34,029 bases of DNA from a virus (lineage: Duplodnaviria > Heunggongvirae > Uroviricota > Caudoviricetes). The position numbers and the translations under genes were made by a program. Below the pieces are notes generated by a model. The model worked only from the letters and a program-made list of their open reading frames with translations, did no database searches and had not been told where the DNA came from. This document shows positions 3,162-32,890 of this stretch, in pieces; the first letter of the stretch is position 1; each line of letters opens with the position of its first letter. Location: the IMG/VR virus record IMGVR_UViG_649989947_000025; one strand, given 5' to 3'.

Positions 3162-4262
3162 TCATTCCATTTCGAAATCATCAATCCTCACTTCAAGCTC
3201 CAGACTGGTTGTAAAACCGTTATCGGGGCTGACGGTATGCGTCAGAGTCGTAATGGTCCATTCCGCATCATCTATCGGCTGTTTAAAGCCACTGACTTTC
3301 ACTGGCATTTCCGTGTAGAGATCTGCCCGACCTTCTGCCAGTTGTAGCGAGAATGACGCAACGCCGCGTTGCAGGCGTTCCCACTGCATTTTCGCCGCCC
3401 GTTCGGCGTTGCTCCGGTTGGCATAGGTGCGATTAAGTACCAGCACGTTTTCATCTGTACCCACCAGGTAATCGCCCTGCTTCGCTTCCGGCTCTTTCTT
3501 CTGCTTCTTAGTCCTGCGCTTACGCTTCACCGTGGTGCTTTCATTCTTCGCGGGTTCGCGGGTATGCAACCAGCTGGCAATTACTCCCGTGTAGGCTCCG
3601 CGATCTGCCAGGGTAAAGCGGTGACTGTCGCCGTCCTTACGTGTGATAGTGATAACCGGTAGTGGTTTACCGCTGGCGCTTTTACCCTGTCCCTGCCGGA
3701 TGAATAACAGATTGCCATTTTTCACCGACGCAATAGCACCGTATTGGCGCGCCAGCCGCATCAGAAAACTGCCGTCACTCTCATTGGTCTGGTCTATATG
3801 TTCCACGGGTTTATCTGACAGGTCTTTACCCAATGCCATCTTCAGTTTGTGCCGCACAGCTATTTCCTTCACCACTTCCCCGACGGTGGTCTTGTGCCAC
3901 GACTTTTCACGGCGGGTATTCAGCGTTTCACGAAAATCAGCACTTCGCGCCCGGATAGTCAGGCGGTCCGGTGCGCCAGTGTGTTCAATCTCGTCCACCG
4001 TGAATGCCCCTTTCGGGAAAAGCGGCTGCCCCTTCCAGCCCAGCGCCAGCGTAATAACCGCACCACGGCGCGGCAGCACGATTTTTCCGTCGGCGTCGTC
4101 CAGCTCCAGATCAAGCTGGTCCGCTTCAAAGCCCCGATTGTCCGTCAGCGTCAAACTCATTAGGCGGTTATCCAGCACAGTGGTGATATCCCTGCCCTCA
4201 ATACTGATGCTGAATGCGGGAGTTTTGTTGCCTTTGTTAAGCAGTTCAGAGCTGAAATTCAT
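3162..4262 (-). CDS. D: tail protein gpD (late control D)
   Basis: 366 aa, position downstream of U, 4-nt overlap with the U stop. Confidence 0.85.
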   Translation of the reverse strand: MNFSSELLNKGNKTPAFSISIEGRDITTVLDNRLMSLTLTDNRGFEADQLDLELDDADGKIVLPRRGAVITLALGWKGQPLFPKGAFTVDEIEHTGAPDRLTIRARSADFRETLNTRREKSWHKTTVGEVVKEIAVRHKLKMALGKDLSDKPVEHIDQTNESDGSFLMRLARQYGAIASVKNGNLLFIRQGQGKSASGKPLPVITITRKDGDSHRFTLADRGAYTGVIASWLHTREPAKNESTTVKRKRRTKKQKKEPEAKQGDYLVGTDENVLVLNRTYANRSNAERAAKMQWERLQRGVASFSLQLAEGRADLYTEMPVKVSGFKQPIDDAEWTITTLTHTVSPDNGFTTSLELEVRIDDFEME

Positions 4263-4744
4263 GACAGCAGCCCTCCCACCGTTTTACTGATATCGCTTAA
4301 GGCAGACGTTGCTGTGTCCTGCAGATTATTCAGTTGCGCACTGAGATCACCGAATATATCGGACAGGGATTCATCCACCCGTTTGAGCGACAGGGTGAAC
4401 TCAATCCGGCGCGGCATACCGTCGCGGAAAAACTCCGTTTTAGTCTGATTCAGTCCCTCAATCACATACATGCCATAAATCGTGCCACTGCCTTCAATCA
4501 GGGGCCATGCTTTCCCCTGTTCTGCCATCTGCTCCAGTGCCAGCAACGACAGCCTGCCGCCTGTTATCTCCGGCATAAGAACACCGGAAAGCGTCAGCAT
4601 GTCGTTGTCCGGTCCCAGAAACTGCGTGGACGGACGTCGGTTTACCCGGCTGTTTGCCGCATGTCGCCAGCTGCGTTGATACTGCAGCTCCTGATACGGC
4701 ACGGTGCGCAGCATAAACACGTACAATCCCAGCACCATCATCAT
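4259..4744 (-). CDS. U: tail protein gpU
   Basis: 161 aa, P2 gpU size and position. Confidence 0.8.
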   Translation of the reverse strand: MMMVLGLYVFMLRTVPYQELQYQRSWRHAANSRVNRRPSTQFLGPDNDMLTLSGVLMPEITGGRLSLLALEQMAEQGKAWPLIEGSGTIYGMYVIEGLNQTKTEFFRDGMPRRIEFTLSLKRVDESLSDIFGDLSAQLNNLQDTATSALSDISKTVGGLLS

Positions 4745-5898
4745 GCGTCGTATCCCCCCTGATCGCTGTAGTTACTCCTGGCTTTTGCCTTCAGCCTGCG
4801 TTCACGTTCATCAAGCTGGCGGGCCACCTCCCGCGCAATATCCTGCGCACTTTGTCCTGGCTGTGTCTGGATGATGATCTGCGTCGGTGCTTCAATCCGG
4901 TAAATGGGCGGCACAGTAGCTGCACGACTCACCATCGCTTCACCGCCTTTTGCGGGAAGCGCCAAAGGATGCAACGGTGGAAGCTCTGCTGGCGCGGCAG
5001 CAACACCCATCATTCCGGCGACAACGGCAGCCAGTGCAGCTGTATTTCTCCGGCTGGTCACGTTTGCCGGGCCGTTAACAATTTCCGGCCCGTTTTCACC
5101 GACGATGCCAAACTGCCCGCGCGGGATATAGCCGCCGCTGTCATACATCCCCGCAAAGCCATATCCCCATGACGGAAAATCACCCGATGGCATCATCACT
5201 TTACCGTCTGCATTCACCGTCGCAGGTTGCTGACGCGTCACGCTTTCCGGCAGTTTCGCCTTTGCAGCCTCTTTACTGACAATGCCGAGTTTATCCAGCA
5301 ACCAGGAAACGCCGGATTTCAGGGAGTCCAGCGGATGCATAACCATATTCAGCCCTTCCGCCAGTGCCTCCCCGAATCGTCGCCCCATTGCCGCTGCGCT
5401 CTGCAGTTCGGCAGAGGTCGACTTAACGGGCGTCAGCAGATCAGTAAACCAGCCCCATAGCGCCTGCACTTTGTCGCCAATCCACTGGAACACAGGCTTA
5501 AGCGGTTCGAACGCTGCACTGACGGGACCTACCGCCGCTTTGAATCCTTCCACCACGCCACCGAGAAATGCGGTGATGGGTTGCCAGTATTTCCAGACAA
5601 CCAGCGCCACGCCCGCCAGTGCAGTAACCACAAGACCTATCGGACTGAGCAGAGCACCTAACAGACCAGATATGGCATACAGGGCAACGCGCAGCATCGC
5701 CAGTGGACCAGATGCCAGTACTCGCAGCACCGTGCCTGCGGCGGCCAGTCCACCGCGCAGTACCGCCAGAGGATTCATAAACATCACAGCAACAGCACGT
5801 AAACCGGATAATCCAGACCGCAAAAGTGCAACCGGCGCACCTGCTACAGTTTTCAGGACATTTCCCGTCAGTGATGCCGTGCGGCGCAAAGACGACAA
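4741..5898 (-). CDS. T: tail tape measure protein gpT, C-terminal portion (frame continues upstream of 5898 without a stop)
   Basis: Gly/Ala/Leu-rich repetitive sequence typical of tape measure; frame differs from the N-terminal ORF. Confidence 0.7.
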   Translation of the reverse strand: MSSLRRTASLTGNVLKTVAGAPVALLRSGLSGLRAVAVMFMNPLAVLRGGLAAAGTVLRVLASGPLAMLRVALYAISGLLGALLSPIGLVVTALAGVALVVWKYWQPITAFLGGVVEGFKAAVGPVSAAFEPLKPVFQWIGDKVQALWGWFTDLLTPVKSTSAELQSAAAMGRRFGEALAEGLNMVMHPLDSLKSGVSWLLDKLGIVSKEAAKAKLPESVTRQQPATVNADGKVMMPSGDFPSWGYGFAGMYDSGGYIPRGQFGIVGENGPEIVNGPANVTSRRNTAALAAVVAGMMGVAAAPAELPPLHPLALPAKGGEAMVSRAATVPPIYRIEAPTQIIIQTQPGQSAQDIAREVARQLDERERRLKAKARSNYSDQGGYDA

Positions 5899-7814
5899 CG
5901 GCGCAGTAAGTAAACCTGCGGCGTTGCCCGATGAAGCAAGCCCGCGTCGCAGCAGTGCCAGTGGCGCGCCAGCCAGGACAACGCGCTGCTGGTTCGAGTT
6001 ACTGCTGCCGTAACGGAAGATAACGTTTTGATACCCAACACAGAGAATCCCAGACGGATCACTGCCAGCGGCCCCAGCACTGCAGCCAGCGCCACCGCTA
6101 AGGTGCCGAGGCCGACGGTAACCGCAGCCACAACAGCCGATGCTTTCATCAGTGTGCCTGTCAGTTCCGGGTTAGCTTCCACCCAGCGACGCAACGCCCC
6201 CGTGACGCTTTTCACCGTGTACAGAATATCCATCAGCGGCTGGCGCAGCGTTTCGCCCAGGCTGCTGAAGGTGTTCTGCGCTCCGGTTTTGACCAGCAAC
6301 CACTGCGCAGAAAGTGAATCCTTGTTAATGTCGGATTCTTTCTGCATGGAGCCGAGCGCATCATTGCCCGCTGTCAGTTTTAGCTGGCGCTGCAGTTCCG
6401 GAAGGTTGTTTGCCAGTTTCGCCGCGTCATCACCAAACTCTTTACCAAACAACATGGTCATGGCAGACAGACGCTTGTCCTGCGGCAGTGCGTTCACCTT
6501 CTCCAGCACACGCTGGATAGTTCCCATCGCATCCTTCGTCATCTGCTTTTCAATCACTTCAGGATTGAGTTTCAGCAGATTCATCCCTTCAAAGAAACTC
6601 TTGCTTTGCATGGTGGCAATGGACAATTCACGCACCATCGCGTTTGCTGCACTGGCTGCAACCTCTGGCGCAGCGCCCAGTGTCAGGAAGGTGGAACCCA
6701 GCGCCGCCGCTTTACGATAATCCAGACGGTCAGCCACACCGCCCAGACGTTGCATCACATCAATGATGTCTGCCCCTTTCGACATGGCGTTATCATCCAG
6801 ATAGTTCAGCGCATCACCGAGCTGTTCAATATTGCGGGTGGGGATTTTGTAGAGCTGGGCGATTTTCCCCAGACTTTCTGACAGTTCATCCGCTGGCAGC
6901 TCAAAGGCTGTTGCCGCCTTTGCTGCCGTACTGGCGAAGGCCAGCAGGTCACGTTTCTGATCTTCCCAGCTGTCGTCAGGGTTTGCGACGTTCATGCGCG
7001 CACCACCTTCAACCAGTGCAGCGAAGTCCACCGCACCGTTTTCCATCGGCAACTGTTCGCTGGCAGCCTTGATGGCATCCTGCATTTCATAAAAACGTGC
7101 AGTGCGGTTGCCATTATCGTCACGCAGACCATTGACCTGCTTTGCCACACCTTTCATGGCATCTTCCATGCTGGTATAGCTTTTTACTGCCGACATCACT
7201 GGCGCACCCATTGCCAGCCCTGCAGCCGTGGTGGTGGCTCCGGCACCTGCAATACGATCACGCACCTCCAGCGAACGGGCATAACTGGCACGCGCTGCAT
7301 TCATCCTGCGCTGAGCTTCCCCCAGTCGCTTCAGCCGCGCCTCCTGTTTCGAAAGTTCCTGGTTATAACGTGATGTTTCACGGGCTAAACGGGCAGTTGC
7401 TCCCGCATCGTCTTTCGCAGAAATTCCCGCCCGGTACAGTTCAGCACGCACAAGCGCCGTCTGCTGCTGCAGCTTTTTCTGGCGTTCTTCCAGGCGCTGA
7501 ACAGCCAGCCGTTGACGGCCCAGAGCAACAACCTGACGTTGCGAAGGCGGCCCCATCGCTCCCAGTTCCTGACTGAGCAAATTTGCACGCTGGCGGGCAT
7601 AGTTCAGCCTGTCGCCTAATTTCTGATTTTCTGCCTGCAGCTTTCGGAAGCTGTCCAGACTGCTCCCGGCCTGATCAAGCTGCTTTATTGCATCGCGGGA
7701 TTTTTTGACAGCAGCAGCCAGTTCTCTTGAACTGGCCTGCGCAGATCGAAATGGGCGGGTGAGCTTGTCAACCGCATTAAGAATGACCTGCAGACGCAGG
7801 TTGTTATCACTCAT
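5868..7814 (-). CDS. T: tail tape measure protein gpT, N-terminal portion (coiled-coil rich), ends in an out-of-frame tail
   Basis: 648-aa ORF starting MSDNNLRLQV directly after E/E'; last ~35 aa are Trp/His/Cys-rich, suggesting frame loss. Confidence 0.75.
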   Translation of the reverse strand: MSDNNLRLQVILNAVDKLTRPFRSAQASSRELAAAVKKSRDAIKQLDQAGSSLDSFRKLQAENQKLGDRLNYARQRANLLSQELGAMGPPSQRQVVALGRQRLAVQRLEERQKKLQQQTALVRAELYRAGISAKDDAGATARLARETSRYNQELSKQEARLKRLGEAQRRMNAARASYARSLEVRDRIAGAGATTTAAGLAMGAPVMSAVKSYTSMEDAMKGVAKQVNGLRDDNGNRTARFYEMQDAIKAASEQLPMENGAVDFAALVEGGARMNVANPDDSWEDQKRDLLAFASTAAKAATAFELPADELSESLGKIAQLYKIPTRNIEQLGDALNYLDDNAMSKGADIIDVMQRLGGVADRLDYRKAAALGSTFLTLGAAPEVAASAANAMVRELSIATMQSKSFFEGMNLLKLNPEVIEKQMTKDAMGTIQRVLEKVNALPQDKRLSAMTMLFGKEFGDDAAKLANNLPELQRQLKLTAGNDALGSMQKESDINKDSLSAQWLLVKTGAQNTFSSLGETLRQPLMDILYTVKSVTGALRRWVEANPELTGTLMKASAVVAAVTVGLGTLAVALAAVLGPLAVIRLGFSVLGIKTLSSVTAAVTRTSSALSWLARHWHCCDAGLLHRATPQVYLLRRCRLCAARHH

Positions 7815-7940
7815 CGTTGGCCCCGCTTCTCTGAATCGCTTTATACCGCCATTCCAGCACTTCGGTCAGCGGCATAACGTCAGTAACGGATGGCGGCCAG
7901 TGAAAAATGGTGGCGATATCTGCCACCAGATCGTCAACCG

Positions 7941-8243
7941 TCAGGCTGTCGGTAAACCGGCAAGCACCGACTTCTTCAACAAAAAAGTGACAACCTCAAC
8001 CGACATGGCAGTGAGATCTGCCGGGTCCATCTCTGCAATTTCCTGTGCAGTCAGTGCCGGACTGGAGATGCGGGGGATCACGGTCATCATCGCGTTTACA
8101 TCCATATCCATAATGGCCTGCAGGCGTGTACCGCGCAGCGCACCGGACTGCGGTTTACGCAGCACAATTTCGGTGATTTCTGTTTTACCGCGCTTGATGG
8201 GGGTATCCAGTTGAATGGTCTTTTCAGTCTGCTTATCGCTCAT
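7941..8243 (-). CDS. E: tail assembly chaperone gpE (E+E' made by -1 frameshift, extension ends near 7810)
   Basis: 100-aa ORF between FII and T; in-frame T.TTT.TTG slippery heptamer near its 3' end. Confidence 0.8.
   Translation of the reverse strand: MSDKQTEKTIQLDTPIKRGKTEITEIVLRKPQSGALRGTRLQAIMDMDVNAMMTVIPRISSPALTAQEIAEMDPADLTAMSVEVVTFLLKKSVLAGLPTA
7980..7986 (-). other. programmed -1 ribosomal frameshift site TTTTTTG (E to E+E')
   Basis: heptamer is in frame with Phe-Leu of gpE; the -1 frame stays open about 57 codons to a TGA overlapping the T start. Confidence 0.7.
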
Positions 8244-8297: not shown

Positions 8298-8813
8298 TCA
8301 GAGGCCGAGGGCGTTGCGGTGCGCTTCCATCAGGTCCACACCGTCCACAATTTCCACCATGTTGATAAGGTCCACTTCATAGAGCACCTCACCATTGATG
8401 GTCAGCTTCGCGTAGCTGTTGGTACTGGTCACTTTGGTGGTGTTGCTTTCGCCCGTCTTCCACTCACCGGAATCCACTTCTTTGTGACGTCCACGCACCA
8501 CAAGCTCCACGGCCTGCACTTCCCCGGTATCGTCACGCTGGATAGAGCCGGTAAAGCGCAACTGGATGCCATCCACCGTGGCTTTGCCCATCTGCTTAAA
8601 CAGCAGCAGTTCAGTACCACCAATGGTAAATTCTGTGTCCAGCGCACTGTCATCAAGCCCCAGATCCACATCCACTGCCCCCGGCATTCCGCCACCGCGA
8701 TACTTCTCATATTTGCGGGTGAATTTCGGCAGCGTCAGCGACTCAACGATCCCCTGCCAGTTGTTCCCGTCGTTAAACAGGTTCAGGTGTTTTAATTTGC
8801 GTGGTAAAGCCAT
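8298..8813 (-). CDS. FII: tail tube protein gpFII
   Basis: 171 aa, size and position. Confidence 0.85.
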   Translation of the reverse strand: MALPRKLKHLNLFNDGNNWQGIVESLTLPKFTRKYEKYRGGGMPGAVDVDLGLDDSALDTEFTIGGTELLLFKQMGKATVDGIQLRFTGSIQRDDTGEVQAVELVVRGRHKEVDSGEWKTGESNTTKVTSTNSYAKLTINGEVLYEVDLINMVEIVDGVDLMEAHRNALGL

Positions 8814-8822
8814 GTTGTCCCC

Positions 8823-9995
8823 TTACGCGCTGACCTGGCTGGCGAAATTCACCAGGTACTGATCGGTGATGCGCTGACGCAACATCAGGTTTTCAAGTGG
8901 CGGCACTGGCGTGTAGTCGTAGTCGATGGTGAGTTTTCCGGCTTTCAGAGTGTCTTTGTCGTTCACCGACTCGTCCAGCCAGCAATCACCACCAATGAGA
9001 TACCCCTGACTGACCAGGCTGCGCATTTTGGCGCGGATGCCCTCGATAATGTCGCGCGCCAGCGACGGGTTCAGCGGTTTGTCCACTGCCCACATGTGCG
9101 CTTCTGCCATTGTGTCCGTCAGCACCTGCGCCGTGCGGGTGTAGTTTTCGAAGGCAAAGAGCGGGTCATCACTCAGGCAGCGGGAACCCCAGAAGCGGAA
9201 ACCGTCTTTACGCACAAGCGTGGTGACGTCGTTCTGGTTCAGCAGACCTGCATCGGTTGCCGGGTCCTGCAGATCCCAGAACACATCTGCAGAAATTCCG
9301 GTGACACCGTTCACGCCCACGTTGGACAGGCTTTTGTGCCACCCGGTCTGCTCATCAATTTTGGCACGCAGACCAAGCGCACGGGCGGTGGCATATGCCG
9401 TTGCTTCGGCATTCAGCACCGTGTCCCAGCCAGTAAAGTCGGGCCAGATCAGCATTCCTTCGCGCTGGCTGAAGTTTTCACGGTAAGTGATCGCCTCCTG
9501 TACCGTCTTGCAGCCATACGCTGACAGGTAGGCAAACCCACGCAGGCTTTGCGCCACACTCAGCAACTCAGTCGCAACGGCTTTGTTATCGTGACCTGGC
9601 ACGCCGAGAATGCGCGGTTTAACGCCGAGCTGTGTCTGGGCAGATAACAGGGCTTTCATGCCTGTTTTTTTACCTTCAGCAGTCACTGCGCCGATGATAT
9701 TGGTCGTGGTTTCTTCTTCCGTTTCACCCTGCGGCACACGCACAACAACGGTCACGGGTTTTGCCTGGTCAGAGATGGCATCCAGCGAACGGGCCAGCGT
9801 GCCGGACTCACCCGCTTTACCGCTGGCAGTCAGCACATCAGTGATCAGCACGGGTTTATTAAGAGGAAACATTTTTGCATCGGCATCATCGCCCGTGCAG
9901 ACCATGCCCACGATGGCGGTGCTCACCGTGGTAATGGATCGGGTACCTTCGTTGACTTCAACAACGCGCACCCCGTGGTGGTAATCCTGAGCCAT
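8823..9995 (-). CDS. FI: contractile tail sheath protein gpFI
   Basis: 390 aa, size and position. Confidence 0.85.
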
Positions 9996-10137: not shown

Positions 10138-10704
10138 TCAGGGGGATTCATTGCTCTTATTTGCCGGAAATTTTCTATAAATGGTAGAAACGCCTACATC
10201 AAAAATCAGTGCAATACACTGTCTTGATTCTCCGGCCTCGAGTAAACGCCCAATCTGTGCCCACTGTTCGGTGGTCAACTTAGGACGGCGTCCACCTACT
10301 CTGCCTTTGGCACGAGCTGCAGCCAGCCCTGCCATGGTACGTTCAACTATCAGTTCGCGTTCCATTTCAGCCAGGGCCCCCATGACATGAAAAAAGAAAC
10401 GGCCCATTGGGGTGCTGGTATCAATACTGTCAGTCAGGCTTCGGAAATTCACGCCACGCTGACGCAACTCTTCTATCAGCGTAACAAGATGCCGCATACT
10501 GCGCCCCAACCTGTCCAGCTTCCAGACAACCAGAGTGTCTCCTGCCGATAGTGTCCTGAGCAGTTTTTTAAGCCCCGGTCTGTCGGACTTAGTGCCACTG
10601 ATTTTATCCTCAAAAATCCGCTCACATCCCGCGCAGTTCAGTGCATTACGTTGCAAATCGGTGTTCTGGTCATTTGTTGACACGCGTACATAGCCAATAA
10701 GCAT
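10138..10704 (-). CDS. serine DNA invertase, Hin/Gin/Pin/Cin family
   Basis: MLIGYVRVSTNDQNTDLQ...LVVWKLDRLGRSM...GRFFFHVMGALAEMERELI, near-identical to Gin/Pin over the catalytic domain; longest ORF extends to 10749. Confidence 0.9.
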   Translation of the reverse strand: MLIGYVRVSTNDQNTDLQRNALNCAGCERIFEDKISGTKSDRPGLKKLLRTLSAGDTLVVWKLDRLGRSMRHLVTLIEELRQRGVNFRSLTDSIDTSTPMGRFFFHVMGALAEMERELIVERTMAGLAAARAKGRVGGRRPKLTTEQWAQIGRLLEAGESRQCIALIFDVGVSTIYRKFPANKSNESP

Positions 10705-10748
10705 GATCAATCCCCTGAATAAAAACCGTGGATGATGCCAGTTAGCCA

Positions 10749-11147
10749 TTATCTCTGCATTTTCATAAACGTACGTTTAGCATAACGTATCTGTGGCCCC
10801 TTACGGCTGACGCGATCACGCAAGCCGTAATGGTGAACACGGGCAATGCGCTGTACCTTACCTTCAAACTGCACGCTGGCAGAGTCGGCGCTGGCGGCAG
10901 TTTTCAGGTATTTTGTGGTGCGAAGTTTTGTAAACATCTGCCGTTTGATACGGCCTTTTTTACTGCGTGCTGTTACTCGCCTCGGTTCATAGCTGCTGCC
11001 ATCAGGATTGCGTTGCATCCTGATGTTCTGCTGCTGTGTCCGGCGCAGTTCCTGCGCCAGCTGGCGCATCATGCGGCTTCTTGCGGCTGGCTCCAGATTC
11101 GCCAGCAAGGCACTCAGCCAGTCGTCCACCTTCTGCAGTTCAGCCAC
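10749..11147 (-). CDS. S: tail completion / virion morphogenesis protein gpS
   Basis: 132 aa, follows R as in P2. Confidence 0.7.
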   Translation of the reverse strand: MAELQKVDDWLSALLANLEPAARSRMMRQLAQELRRTQQQNIRMQRNPDGSSYEPRRVTARSKKGRIKRQMFTKLRTTKYLKTAASADSASVQFEGKVQRIARVHHYGLRDRVSRKGPQIRYAKRTFMKMQR

Positions 11148-19466: not shown

Positions 19467-20441
19467 TTAAATCAAGTCTAATGTACTCTGTTTCCCTGGC
19501 CATTTTAGCTCTAACAAATACTCCCGGGACTCATTTATGATCATAATCACATCATCATAATCCCGTTTTGTTTTTAGCGCTCTAGCCATGTTGCTCTTAA
19601 CTAAATCAACTGTTCCCTCACAATTAAGATTAAGCGGATTATTAGGTAGGTGAGGTACAACCGCAAACACTGGTCTTTTCGCCTTATTTGCAAACTCAGC
19701 TTGAGTTATCGTTCCGCTATTTAACGCAGCCTCGATTAAAATTGAACCTGCAGATAATCCAACTTGTATCCGATTTCTTTGTACAAATGATTGTTTCTGG
19801 GCCGGCCGACCCATAGGATACTCAGAAATCCATGCACCACCTTTATCCAGAATCTCTTGAGCAAGTCGACTGTTTTGCTTCGGCTTAGCCTCCTCAAGAC
19901 CATGCGCCAAGACAGCAATGGTTTTTCCTTTTGCCTGTAACGTTGCCTTGTGGGCATTCGCATCAGTGCCTATTGCTAACCCACTTACAACAATATACCC
20001 AGCAGACACTATCTGATTAGTGATCCGCCTCGTTATTTCTTCCCCTGCAGGGGAGGTATCACGGGATCCTACAATTGCGACACCCGGCAATTCTTTGAGT
20101 ATACTTTTATCCCCTTTTATGTAGAGAATTGATGGTGGATTAGGAGTAAAAGCTAAACTAAGAGGATAGAATTCAGACCCATATGGTATTAGCTCCACAC
20201 CATTAACATGGTGGTTCTCCAATTCAGCGTTCGCTATTAGAAAATCAGTCTCAGATATTTTATCTTTTAGAAACCCGTGGCTATTAACCATCTCAGTTAA
20301 GTCGCGTATATCACGAATAACATCAAAATCGATAAGCTCAAAGAATTTTAATACACTTTGATCAGATGCTAGCTTCCCGATTTGAATAGCTAATCCAAGT
20401 GTATTTTTTAATTCTTCTGAGTGCACTTTGCTACTCCTCAT
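19467..20441 (-). CDS. DprA/Smf-like (SLOG Rossmann-fold) protein, ShosA-like partner of the upstream PRTase
   Basis: AIVGSRDTS ... VVSGLAIGTDANAHKATL ... TIAVLAHGLE motifs; 11-nt overlap with the upstream gene; AT-rich. Confidence 0.7.
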   Translation of the reverse strand: MRSSKVHSEELKNTLGLAIQIGKLASDQSVLKFFELIDFDVIRDIRDLTEMVNSHGFLKDKISETDFLIANAELENHHVNGVELIPYGSEFYPLSLAFTPNPPSILYIKGDKSILKELPGVAIVGSRDTSPAGEEITRRITNQIVSAGYIVVSGLAIGTDANAHKATLQAKGKTIAVLAHGLEEAKPKQNSRLAQEILDKGGAWISEYPMGRPAQKQSFVQRNRIQVGLSAGSILIEAALNSGTITQAEFANKAKRPVFAVVPHLPNNPLNLNCEGTVDLVKSNMARALKTKRDYDDVIMIINESREYLLELKWPGKQSTLDLI

Positions 20442-21006
20442 AGTTTGCAGTTTCTAGCAGAGCTAATGGCATTATAACTCCAGCTCCTGCAGACTCCAGT
20501 AAATAAAAACACGCAGACAAACTACCGCCTGTTGTTTTAACATCATCTAGTAGTAACACATTTCGCCCCATGAGGTTACCACCCCTAACTCTGATACTAG
20601 ACATGTGACCAGTAATTGAGCGATCTCCTCCTTCACGATGTGCGCTAGGAACAGTGCGTGTTCTTTCCAAACAGCAATCAACAATGCCCCGACGGTGAAC
20701 ATTTACGATTCGCTCGGCGACCTCAATCAAAGCCGGTGAAATTCTGCCTTCAGTGTGAGACGGGACAACTGCTATCGAAAAAGGAGACTCAACAAAACGC
20801 CCACCGCCACCTCTGATTACTAACCGCCCAACCTTATCTATAGCTAATCGAGAAAAACGGTTAATGGCCCTTTGATGATTACGATTATTTTCATCCTTAA
20901 AATCCATCATCTGCCTTGATAGTTCATCGCTATGAGGGTTGCGCTCTCCCAAATGCCAGTAGGGGTGATACAAGCCACACGATGTAATACTTACGGGTAA
21001 AAGCAT
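20431..21006 (-). CDS. phosphoribosyltransferase-domain protein, ShosT-like candidate toxin/effector
   Basis: PRTase PRPP-binding signature VLLLDDVKTTGGSL; first gene of a two-gene operon; AT-rich. Confidence 0.7.
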   Translation of the reverse strand: MLLPVSITSCGLYHPYWHLGERNPHSDELSRQMMDFKDENNRNHQRAINRFSRLAIDKVGRLVIRGGGGRFVESPFSIAVVPSHTEGRISPALIEVAERIVNVHRRGIVDCCLERTRTVPSAHREGGDRSITGHMSSIRVRGGNLMGRNVLLLDDVKTTGGSLSACFYLLESAGAGVIMPLALLETANYEE

Positions 21007-21130
21007 TCTTTATTCTCATGTAGTCCTAACTCAAACAATGTTAAGCGAAATGATATTTCATAGACAAACACAAATTTAAGAATAATCTCAATGATCACAT
21101 TTTTGATTATGAAACAAAGCCAAGAGTTAG

Positions 21131-21165
21131 CGCGCGCTCGTATCCCCGCCACGCCTGCCCGCTTT
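21131..21165 (-). other. candidate cos site (cohesive-end region)
   Basis: minus strand reads GGCGTGGCGGGGATACGAGCGCGCGCT, resembling the P2/186 cohesive-end start recalled from memory; correct position and orientation relative to Q. Confidence 0.45.
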
Positions 21166-21534
21166 ATGCAGTGGTTTTCATGCACATGCATGACATGAGC
21201 AAAAGCCCGCCAGTTCTGGCGGATCTGAGCAAAGACGATCCTCAATCGATCATGCGATTTCATGCAGCATAGTCATGCACTGTCAAGGAAGTGAAAATCC
21301 GTATCTGAATGGCCACTTGAAAAACGGATCATACGGGTTTACAAAGATGAATGTTCGCTGTGAACGGGAAGCGGAAGTTAGCTTTCAGATAACATAATCC
21401 ATATGCACGAGAACCTCTAAAATAGAATGGGACACCTAAGCGGGGTACTTACAACGATTCTTTCCATATTCACAGTTAACACTCTGTTTGGCGTATTTTT
21501 ATTCAAATAGCAAACACCAATAAAAGGAGTTTCC

Positions 21535-22649: not shown

Positions 22650-22883
22650 TTAATACAGGTTCCGCCACTTATCATCTTCCTGCAAACGCTGGTTCCGATA
22701 GAAGATACGCAGGCCAGCTCCTGACGGAATACTGCCGCCGCGAAGGAGTAAATCGACCTCTTTCTCGCTGCCATCAAATCCTCTGGATTTCAGTTCATAG
22801 ACGAGCTGCTGTCGTTGATGGTCTGTAATTCGCTGTTTGTAGTCTCTACGCCGTTTCGGTTTCACCAGACGTAACCTTGCAGC
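22650..22883 (-). pseudogene. A: displaced 3' fragment of replication gene A (about 76 codons) separated by the IS insertion
   Basis: reading frame is continuous with the A ORF once the IS and one target-duplication copy are removed. Confidence 0.65.
22879..22883. repeat. 5-bp target site duplication GCAGC (left copy)
   Basis: identical 5-mer directly abuts both IS ends. Confidence 0.75.
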
Positions 22884-27019
<4,136 letters not shown>

Positions 27020-29678: not shown

Positions 29679-29797
29679 GATGCAACATTCCTCGTTTAAT
29701 GTTGATTAATCAGGACGAATACGGATCGTTTGTATTTTGTGAACACCATAAACATACGATCGCATAATGAAATCATCAAGACAAAAGTTCACTTGGA
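29679..29797. promoter_or_regulatory. lysis-lysogeny switch region between apl-like and cI
   Basis: 119-bp AT-rich intergenic region between divergently oriented repressor and early operon. Confidence 0.5.
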
Positions 29798-30373
29798 GTG
29801 ACCATGAATTTGGAGAAAGGCGGACGAGGCGCTATAGAGCGCATGGTAGAAGCATATGGCTTCAAGACTCGACAGGCGTTGTGCGATCACTTAGGAATCT
29901 CTAAAAGTACTCTCGCCACACGCTATATGCGTGACTCATTCCCTGCTGAATGGGTAATCCAGTGCGCACTTGAAACGGGCGCCTCGCTTAACTGGCTCAC
30001 GACCGGACATGGTTCAAAGCAAACTTCAGGTAATACAAATACTATGGAAGTCGTTAAATATGTATTATCTGATGGAACCTTGCAGGAAGATGGTTTTTAT
30101 ATTTTCGATAAAGAATTTCTACCATCTACGCTCAAAAATCCGTTTGTAATCACCGATAACAATTCCGTTTTTATTTGCGATAAAGAGTTTAACGATATTC
30201 GTGACGGCAAATGGGTAATAAGTATTGATGCCGAAGTAACAATCCGCGATATCACTCGTTTACCTGGTGGAAGAATCTTAGTTGAAGGTGGAAATAGGGC
30301 TTTCGAATGTAAAAAAGAAGAAATCGAAATTATTGGAAAAATTATAAGCATAACAGTTAAGTACTTTGAGTAA
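29798..30373 (+). CDS. cI: CI-type immunity repressor (186 CI-like)
   Basis: 191 aa, N-terminal CI-type HTH (KTRQALCDHLGISKSTLATRYMRD) plus C-terminal oligomerisation domain; position next to the switch. Confidence 0.8.
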   Translation: MTMNLEKGGRGAIERMVEAYGFKTRQALCDHLGISKSTLATRYMRDSFPAEWVIQCALETGASLNWLTTGHGSKQTSGNTNTMEVVKYVLSDGTLQEDGFYIFDKEFLPSTLKNPFVITDNNSVFICDKEFNDIRDGKWVISIDAEVTIRDITRLPGGRILVEGGNRAFECKKEEIEIIGKIISITVKYFE

Positions 30374-30423: not shown

Positions 30424-31347
30424 ATGTCAACTCAAAAATTAAAATTTAGCCATATCAAAAACGATCTGAAAGCAATAGTTATGCAGAATCGTGGAGGGCA
30501 AAAAGTTATTGAGCGTATACTCCTAGCCTATGGCTTCAAGTCACGACAGGCATTATGTAATCATCTAGGTATTTCCCAAAGTACTATGGCCAACAGATAT
30601 GCACGTAATACCTTTCCTGCAGATTGGGTTGTTATATGTTCCATAGAAACAGGAGCATCAATTGAATGGTTAGTTCTTGGTTCAGATACTGCTCCTTCAT
30701 CAGAGCAATATTCTGAAAAACATGCCGTTAATGGCCTTTGCAATGAAGTATACATTCCCACTATAAAGTTCGATAATGAAAAACTCATGAATTTTAACCG
30801 AGGGGGTAAGGCAACAATAGAACGAATTGTCGAGGCTTACGGTTACAAAACGCGCCAAGCATTAGCTGATCACCTAGGTATTTCAAAAAGCACATTAGCC
30901 ACACGATACATGCGTGACATTTTTCCTGCAGACTGGGTTTTGCAGTGTGCAATAGAAACGGGCCATTCTATTGAATGGATTTCATTTGGTACAGGAGAAA
31001 TGAAAAACGCAAAAAATAAAGATACTTTAACATTAGTGAAAAAAGTATTAATCAATGGCAAGTTAATAAATGATGGCTCATATTTATTTGACCCATGCTT
31101 TCTACCTTCCAATTTAAAAAATGCATTCGTAGTATCTACCGAAGACTCTGAATTAATATGTGAAATGGGTTTTAAAGATGTACATGATGGTAAGTGGCTA
31201 GTAAATATTGATGGAGAGAATTCATTTAGAATGATAACTCGACTACCTAAAGGACGAGTTTATATTTCATCCCAAAATCACTCTTTTGAATGTTCGCTTA
31301 CAGACATTGAGTTTATTGCAAAAGTTATTATAAGTTGTTTACATTAA
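30424..31347 (+). CDS. CI-repressor paralog with two tandem CI-type HTH domains
   Basis: residues ~24-88 and ~127-190 each repeat the CI HTH; C-terminal ~110 aa align with the C-terminal domain of the upstream CI. Confidence 0.75.
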   Translation: MSTQKLKFSHIKNDLKAIVMQNRGGQKVIERILLAYGFKSRQALCNHLGISQSTMANRYARNTFPADWVVICSIETGASIEWLVLGSDTAPSSEQYSEKHAVNGLCNEVYIPTIKFDNEKLMNFNRGGKATIERIVEAYGYKTRQALADHLGISKSTLATRYMRDIFPADWVLQCAIETGHSIEWISFGTGEMKNAKNKDTLTLVKKVLINGKLINDGSYLFDPCFLPSNLKNAFVVSTEDSELICEMGFKDVHDGKWLVNIDGENSFRMITRLPKGRVYISSQNHSFECSLTDIEFIAKVIISCLH

Positions 31348-31372
31348 GTAAATTTTTCATGGAGACTTCATA

Positions 31373-32890
31373 GTGAAATGTGGTGATTGTAATTGGAACT
31401 GGGATGAAGAAACTACCTTTATATTAGACGACGAAGAGGAAATTCTTTCCAAAGACAAACTTAATCGGAGACACTATGCAGAATATCTATATTTTTATCT
31501 TAAGGAAAAGGGGCAAAAGAACAACACGGTAATCAACCTTAATGCAGAATGGGGAGCTGGTAAAAGTTTTTTCATAAAGAGATTTTATAACTCAATAAAA
31601 GATGCACACCCATGCGTTTACATTGATGCCTGGAAGCAAGACTTTTCTGATGATGCATTTTTAACCCTTTTTTCTTCTTTGTCACAACAATTGCAAACAT
31701 ATGCAGGAAAACTTGATGCTCGATTGATACAAAGCGGCCATGCTATCGGACGCTTTACAAAAGGTGTTCTACCTGAAATCATATCTGGCCTAATCAAGAC
31801 TTATGCAGGAGTAGATAACGTAGGTGATATAGCCAAAGAAGCCTCATTAATAATGCTGAAGGAACACCAGGAAAAACTGAAGAGCATTAAGGTATTAAAA
31901 AAAGAACTAACGTTATGGTCTAGGTTGGCATATGAAAATAGTTTTTCATGTCCTATATTTATCTTTATAGATGAATTAGACAGATGCAGGCCAGATTATG
32001 CAATTTCTCTTTTAGAGATTGTTAAACATATATTCGATATTAAAAATTTTGTCTTTATTATTGCTACTGACACAGATCAATTACAACATTCAATCAAGAA
32101 TGTTTACGGTAATGATTTTTCCGCAAATGACTATTTAGGCCGTTTTTTTCATAGAAGATTTACTTTAAAACAACCTGAACTTAAAGATTTAATTAATGGT
32201 GTTGTTGGTGATTATATTGGTACCGATTTTGAAAATATCACATCAAAAACACACCCACTAACAGCAACATTAGAAGACTTTTCAATAAATATTTCCAACG
32301 TATTTGAAGCATTTGGGTTAAATCTAAGAGACTCAATCCGAAATACTGAAAGGTTAATAGACATTCTTAAATCTGATTTAGTCAAAAAGAAAGTAGATTA
32401 TATTTTTATAATTTCGCTAATGATTATATATGATAAGGAACGTCAAATTATAGATGGACTAATTGGTCGAAGAAATGCAGCACAACGTTTCACTGATTCG
32501 ATAAAGCAAAGCTCCAATTTAAAAGGTGTTTCTCAAGCCATCCTTGAATTAAATCTTGATACAAATCAGCAAAGAATAGGTGTCAATTATATCTATAGAA
32601 CGGCGAGCAGTAGATTATTCATCTCACAGATCGAGCCCAAAATAAATTTAACATTAATAAATTACTTAGATGTTGCATTGTATTTTATTAATAATATAAA
32701 CATGCTTAAATCAAGTATAAAAAACAATGGGCAAAATTCACTAATGATTATATCTCAACAAGGCCCTATTGATGGTGATACAGCTATAAAGTATTTGCAA
32801 GGAGCCCTTATAGAGAATGGTCTGAATACATCTTTTTATGCCTTACATAATTACATTGAATTAATTGAACTGGCCACATCATTTGATTAA
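31373..32890 (+). CDS. KAP-family P-loop NTPase
   Basis: Walker A NAEWGAGKSFF, KAP-type Walker B FIFIDELDRC, 505 aa, GTG start with GGAG SD; very AT-rich. Confidence 0.75.
   Translation: MKCGDCNWNWDEETTFILDDEEEILSKDKLNRRHYAEYLYFYLKEKGQKNNTVINLNAEWGAGKSFFIKRFYNSIKDAHPCVYIDAWKQDFSDDAFLTLFSSLSQQLQTYAGKLDARLIQSGHAIGRFTKGVLPEIISGLIKTYAGVDNVGDIAKEASLIMLKEHQEKLKSIKVLKKELTLWSRLAYENSFSCPIFIFIDELDRCRPDYAISLLEIVKHIFDIKNFVFIIATDTDQLQHSIKNVYGNDFSANDYLGRFFHRRFTLKQPELKDLINGVVGDYIGTDFENITSKTHPLTATLEDFSINISNVFEAFGLNLRDSIRNTERLIDILKSDLVKKKVDYIFIISLMIIYDKERQIIDGLIGRRNAAQRFTDSIKQSSNLKGVSQAILELNLDTNQQRIGVNYIYRTASSRLFISQIEPKINLTLINYLDVALYFINNINMLKSSIKNNGQNSLMIISQQGPIDGDTAIKYLQGALIENGLNTSFYALHNYIELIELATSFD

Follow-up and report, generated by a model that had tools for sequence, protein, structure and literature searches.

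The DNA analysed here, a 34,029-nt stretch from virus record IMGVR_UViG_649989947_000025 (the window), carries a P2-like prophage whose tail operon lies on the minus strand and includes gene T, which encodes the tail tape measure protein. As the alignments below show, gene T is split across two reading frames because a (CTGG)3 tract is one CTGG short. We hold with high confidence that T became a pseudogene through this loss in an already defective prophage, that the loss had a single origin near Escherichia coli O127:H6 E2348/69 and was then inherited, and that it probably reflects neutral decay.

Loss of one CTGG unit from gene T

Intact gene T is 3078 nt long and encodes 1025 residues (aa), close to the ~1020 aa estimated in an earlier note made from the letters of this DNA. 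The elements of the split gene in the window are as follows.

4741–7814, minus strand: gene T (tail tape measure), frameshifted pseudogene; 3074 nt versus 3078 nt in intact relatives, 98–100% identical to genes annotated as "phage tail tape measure protein"
5868–7814, minus strand: N-terminal open reading frame (ORF), 648 aa; 7814–5967 encodes 616 native residues and 5966–5871 encodes 32 out-of-frame residues, with the stop at 5868–5870
4741–6171, minus strand: −1 frame, open from 6171, that encodes the last ~409 native residues of T; the listed ORF (385 aa, 4741–5898) begins at TTG 5898
5968–5977, minus strand: lesion site, C-CTGG-CTGG-C in the window versus C-CTGG-CTGG-CTGG-C in intact genes; the remaining units occupy 5976–5969

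The earlier note had proposed a tape measure gene split over two frames, and both ORFs lie exactly at the coordinates it gave (5868–7814 and 4741–5898). The N-terminal 616 residues of the 648-aa ORF equal the intact protein with no mismatch, while its last 32 residues, RHWHCCDAGLLHRATPQVYLLRRCRLCAARHH, are foreign to that protein; the Trp/His/Cys-rich tail is indeed out of frame, as had been suspected. The C-terminal frame, said to stay open well upstream of 5898, reaches 6171, with its upstream stop at 6172–6174, 273 nt above 5898. In this frame 411 residues match the intact protein exactly, two of them counted twice owing to the repeat. Gene callers start the C-terminal piece at ATG 5784 (347 aa, in public assemblies). 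The core domain of T is kept in the 648-aa ORF (PF10145 at residues 246–457, 68.6 bits against a cut-off of 33.2), which also matches TIGR01760 at residues 200–567 (310.7 bits, cut-off 28.8); the C-terminal frame has no Pfam or NCBIfam family match. Because T is not one continuous full-length ORF and instead falls into two frames split at 5968–5977, we file it as a pseudogene of the P2 gpT/TIGR01760 tape measure family and not as a functional member.

The alignment to intact gpT that the note had called for pinpoints the indel as one CTGG of (CTGG)3. Escherichia phage 500465-1 and E2348/69 read TC-CTGG-CTGG-CTGG-CGCG where the window reads TC-CTGG-CTGG-CGCG, and the 4-nt gap corresponds to columns 1839–1842 of the gene alignment. 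This gap is the sole difference from the T gene of E2348/69 over 3078 nt, with no substitutions, and putting CTGG back in silico recovers its 1025-aa protein, WP_001282790.1, without a mismatch. Four bases are deleted, which shifts the frame by a net −1. The single-base frame change that had been placed at around 5900–6060 is therefore correctly located, since the break lies at 5965–5977, but wrongly sized, since one 4-base unit is missing.

(CTGG)3 is the only tetranucleotide repeat in gene T with three or more units. We infer that replication slippage removed one CTGG from it, once, in a close relative of E2348/69. Translation would then run 32 codons out of frame and stop, giving a product of 616 native and 32 foreign residues, minus the C-terminal ~409 residues. 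Such a product would be unable to serve as the tail ruler, and tail-assembly function would be lost.

Alternatively, the split might be tolerated or bypassed, either by a −1 ribosomal or transcriptional slip within 6171–5868 that restores T or by separate halves that still work. In favor of this, the shift needed is −1, as in the E/E+E′ frameshift of the operon; the 304-nt overlap leaves room for it; and the N-terminal ORF retains an intact core domain. However, neither an X_XXY_YYZ heptamer in the zero frame nor a homopolymer of six or more bases turned up in a scan of the 6171–5868 overlap, and recoding of T was rejected on this ground. Reading by eye, we found no Shine-Dalgarno-like sequence before either candidate C-terminal start, TTG 5898 or ATG 5784. 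Nor is the two-frame layout conserved, as ~900 E. coli and 39 phage records match and the best-matching copies are all continuous, single-ORF genes of 3078 nt. Moreover, the baseplate genes of the window are deleted, so no tail could form anyway. Taken with these data, bypass is extremely improbable. The split does resemble the programmed −1 frameshifts of P2 E/E+E′ and lambda G/GT, in that two tail-operon frames overlap and the direction is −1, but those systems use a conserved slippery heptamer, whereas the T split occurs without such a signal and is not conserved. The corresponding site of this operon lies upstream of T.

7811–8243, minus strand: tail chaperone E (7941–8243) and its E′ extension (7811–7930), with a TTTTTTG slip site at 7980–7986; from the E ORF and the E2348/69 annotation of E and a "GpE family" ORF

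By analogy with P2 E/E+E′, we take TTTTTTG at 7980–7986 to be the programmed −1 frameshift signal of the operon. This E/E′ site is unrelated to the T lesion.

Inheritance and recurrence of the deletion

The earlier note left two explanations standing, a genuine inactivating frameshift and a sequencing error in a repetitive region. Were the latter true, the genome would have (CTGG)3 and T would be one uninterrupted ORF of 1025 aa. Two points favor an error: the break falls in a short tandem repeat, and the exact allele on an E2348/69-like background is found in none of 5,426 complete E. coli genomes. The repetitive part, however, is only a three-unit tetranucleotide tract, and the exact 648-aa product, foreign tail included, is listed in 44 blocks of a public collection and carried by all 24 contigs read. 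That count is a lower bound (at least 24), drawn from independent assemblies of different projects and assembly types. The carriers include a 5.1-Mb NCBI contig (GCA_900448265.1), the 2012-era draft GCA_000249155.2 (locus L005) and the Logan assembly of run ERR180823. The product also stands under several NCBI accessions (25 contigs; for example EFR14406.1 from E. coli 2362-75), deposited as a tape measure protein. The window and the GCA_900448265.1 locus are 100% identical over the shared 17.8 kb.

The carrier prophages show three architectures. Two CTGG units are present in all three carrier loci examined, and the deletion cosegregates there with six single-nucleotide polymorphism (SNP) states that differ from E2348/69 and are common to all three. 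Resequenced E2348/69 (CP059840.2) independently has three CTGG units. Because many independent assemblies agree and the carriers share SNPs, the CTGG loss appears to be a genuine inherited mutation and not a sequencing error, an alternative that we consider to have next to no chance of being correct. The six SNP states shared across three prophage architectures likewise indicate one mutation inherited vertically by a clade. It weighs against this conclusion that the case rests on concordance between assemblies and not on read-level inspection. A search for the 42-nt exact two-unit allele found no match among one-genome-per-species contigs; since no carrier serves as the representative of its species there, this negative says nothing about the allele.

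In draft L005, two gaps of one base each fall in A7 and A8 runs, at the sites matching window positions 9671 and 1192. These gaps are private to the draft, split its sheath and ybjL genes, and are probable sequencing errors. They offer an internal contrast, since the error signature in the same data consists of single bases in homopolymer runs of one draft, whereas the CTGG loss is common to all carriers examined.

An 80-nt probe across the two-unit tract, searched in complete E. coli genomes (5,426), matched ~900 records. Only two of these match without a gap, F829 (NZ_OY754443.1) and K99B (NZ_CM135133.1), and in both the NCBI Prokaryotic Genome Annotation Pipeline (PGAP) labels T a "frameshifted" pseudogene of 3074 nt; public annotation of other genomes thus already includes the same CTGG loss. 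Like the window, F829 and K99B have lost CTGG at this position, retain 3074 nt, and carry the prophage at ybjL. Unlike carriers of the inherited allele, they lie 153–170 substitutions away from the window and have their own intact nearest relatives, as expected of independent events. The T genes differ by 170 substitutions between the window and F829, 153 between the window and K99B, and 90 between F829 and K99B, with the CTGG as the sole indel.

The ratio of nonsynonymous to synonymous substitution rates (dN/dS) is 0.10–0.15 among the three alleles and 0.11–0.20 downstream of the break, compared with 0.09 for intact alleles, and none of the three has further stops or indels. Because dN/dS is low, like that of intact alleles, and no further stops have accumulated, the F829 and K99B alleles diverged while the full T frame was under selection, before the deletions. 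On these data (dN/dS 0.10–0.20, no extra stops or indels), a common ancestral deletion in F829 and K99B was ruled out. Spread of one patch among the three alleles by gene conversion was rejected as unlikely, with identity around the deletion extending over only 35–80 nt and a SNP 5 nt downstream of the tract. Since the nearest relatives of each allele are intact genes and the divergence is older than the deletions, the tract appears to have contracted independently at least three times, and (CTGG)3 would seem to behave as a small recurrent slippage hot spot. Even a three-unit tetranucleotide tract, it follows, can be hit repeatedly. Two points tell against recurrence: F829 and K99B are represented by one assembly each, and the tract overlaps the CCTGG (Dcm) motif, at which some long-read base-callers err. 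One or both of these recurrences could therefore be artefacts.

Repeated loss of the CTGG unit, at least three times independently, might also point to a contingency locus, with (CTGG)n acting as a reversible or selected on/off switch of tail production exploited by the host. Phase-variable loci have long tracts, with expansions and contractions among close relatives, and known phase-variable tetranucleotide tracts are far longer than three units. Here the tract is short; a search of the 5,426 complete E. coli genomes turned up no (CTGG)4 allele; two units occur in only two of the ~900 records; each of the three carrier loci examined is in the two-unit state, and none shows a return to three; and two of the three affected prophages bear other irreversible lesions. 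A switch of this kind is very unlikely. It is also quite unlikely that repeated contraction of this hot spot is favored by selection on the host, for instance by silencing the tails of prophages at ybjL while their defence cargo is kept, or that the 648-aa product has a use of its own.

The F829 prophage (L008 95–1652) is another heavily decayed copy at ybjL, in which the invertase and sheath genes are truncated and the tube and E genes are missing.

Other lesions and the order of events

The prophage in the window is 99.9% identical to its E2348/69 counterpart save three structural differences. The two share the ybjL site, the gene order, and 3074 of 3078 nt of T (E2348C_RS04470) without substitutions. 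E2348/69 differs in having three CTGG units and a continuous 1025-aa ORF, in having the baseplate segment inverted where the window has it deleted, and in having no IS100 in gene A. Phage 500465-1 (Wadgaonvirus, Peduoviridae), whose gp40 is 98.3% identical to T in DNA over the whole gene, has the same operon (FI, FII, E, E′, T, U, D). Unlike the window, its record is that of a complete phage genome, in which T is intact, the fibre gene has its full 502 aa, the fibre chaperones are present, and the invertible segment is normal.

The fibre gene H of phage 500465-1 (502 aa) carries a Hin-type site, TTCTCACATACC-TT-GGTTTGGGAGAA, which is paired with a second site next to the invertase gene. In all members of the enteropathogenic E. 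coli (EPEC) prophage lineage, with E2348/69 among them, H breaks off at residue ~352 in a hybrid site, TTCTCACATACC-TA-CGTTTATGAAAA, and the distal fibre and the chaperones are gone. Because H is truncated and the chaperones are lost across the whole lineage, including E2348/69, the phage would have been non-infective before T broke. The hybrid site (L005 7038–7065) equals the left half of the H site of the phage joined to the right half of the invertase-side site (parental sites at L007 8692–8719 and 10523–10550), and it resembles the product of a deletion between two sites that ordinarily mediate inversion. Its core is TA, against parental cores of TT and AA.

A secondary site within gene S, TTATGCTAAACG-TA-GGTTACTTGGAA, recombined with the hybrid site, which leaves the following junction in the window.

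10760–10785, minus strand: hybrid Hin/Gin-type site, TTATGCTAAACG-TA-CGTTTATGAAAA, marking a precise 4.75-kb deletion

The deletion removed V, W, J, I, the truncated H, and an AT-rich gene, and left S truncated at 10749–11147 (S′ matches PF05069). The 4.75-kb V-W-J-I-H′ segment is collinear in some genomes, inverted in E2348/69 and L006, and deleted in the window. The sites have a Hin/Gin-like 12-2-12 layout, and the collinear, inverted, and deleted forms are all joined exactly at the palindromic TA core (L005 2221–7140; L003 23680–28560); a symmetric TA core would chemically permit both inversion and deletion. An invertase gene lies beside the hybrid site at 10142–10708, and 10138–10749 matches Resolvase. 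The AT-rich gene (384 aa) in the invertible segment of E2348/69 has no PADLOC match. Goldberg et al. 2014 (PMC4272514) describe invertible loci of E2348/69 at 1.89, 2.75, and 2.98 Mb, not at the ybjL prophage, and this was the only publication that literature searches for work on the ybjL prophage returned.

The third lesion is an insertion in the replication gene.

22884–24837, minus strand: IS100 (IS21 family, 1954 bp) in replication gene A; istA 23729–24751, istB 22950–23732; 100% identical to annotated IS100 copies

IS100 is flanked by a 5-bp target duplication, GCAGC, at 22879–22883 and 24838–24842, and interrupts gene A ~230 nt before the gene end, giving a 752-aa product. Only two further contigs, including ADUL01000076.1, were found to carry this truncated product, which suggests that the insertion came late; its frequency would be underestimated, however, because IS copies interrupt short-read assemblies.

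In gene T, then, a whole repeat unit is lost and the carriers share a SNP background, and the prophage around it has a truncated fibre gene, the 4.75-kb baseplate deletion, and IS100 in gene A. The earlier suggestion that the frameshift is real and inactivating, in line with further decay, is borne out by the inheritance of the allele across many independent assemblies and by these lesions; in this decaying prophage, T is a slipped-strand frameshift pseudogene of an ordinary kind. The probable order of events is as follows. H first lost its distal half and chaperone, leaving the phage non-infective; slippage in T followed; the frameshifted allele then passed vertically to a clade of strains; and the sub-lineage of the window later lost the baseplate genes and gained IS100 in gene A. 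Because the prophage was already non-infective, its fibre gene having lost the distal half and chaperone, the loss of T was probably neutral. This neutrality is read from the other lesions, and against it stands the finding that T has no substitutions relative to E2348/69 and hence no sequence sign of relaxed selection.

For annotation, T should be entered as one frameshifted pseudogene and not as two proteins, and the CTGG loss should not be "corrected" as an error. The locus illustrates clearly how a prophage of an EPEC lineage decays step by step, and is of little import beyond annotation.

Prophage context and cargo

The prophage is P2-like (Peduoviridae) and lies between ybjL and rcdA. 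T sits between the E/E′ chaperone genes and U/D, and the window and its annotated relatives alike have the tail genes arranged as FI, FII, E, E′, T, U, D. The remaining tail genes of the operon are as follows.

8823–9995, minus strand: sheath FI, from the ORF list
8298–8813, minus strand: tube FII, from the ORF list
3162–4744, minus strand: U (4259–4744) and D (3162–4262), intact; PF06995 Phage_P2_GpU and PF05954 Phage_GPD

At the repressor/early-promoter boundary, four transitions relative to E2348/69 fall within 76 bp (29733–29808), compared with ~1 SNP per 1.5 kb elsewhere. A ShosTA-like defence pair occupies the cargo beyond the portal gene (19467–21263), with a ShosA (DprA-like) match at 19467–20441 (E = 2.8e-70) and a ShosT match at 20431–21006 (E = 3.7e-14). 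A 90-aa ORF (20991–21263) overlaps the start of ShosT in another frame. The ShosT gene may also be damaged, since E2348/69 has no coding sequence annotated over the ShosT stretch. Finally, a block of low guanine-plus-cytosine (GC) content (30424–32890, 30–37% GC) adjoins the integrase gene. It encodes a KAP-family P-loop nucleoside triphosphatase matching the PADLOC candidate PDC-S20 (E = 5e-78), together with a second CI-like repressor ORF (30424–31347).

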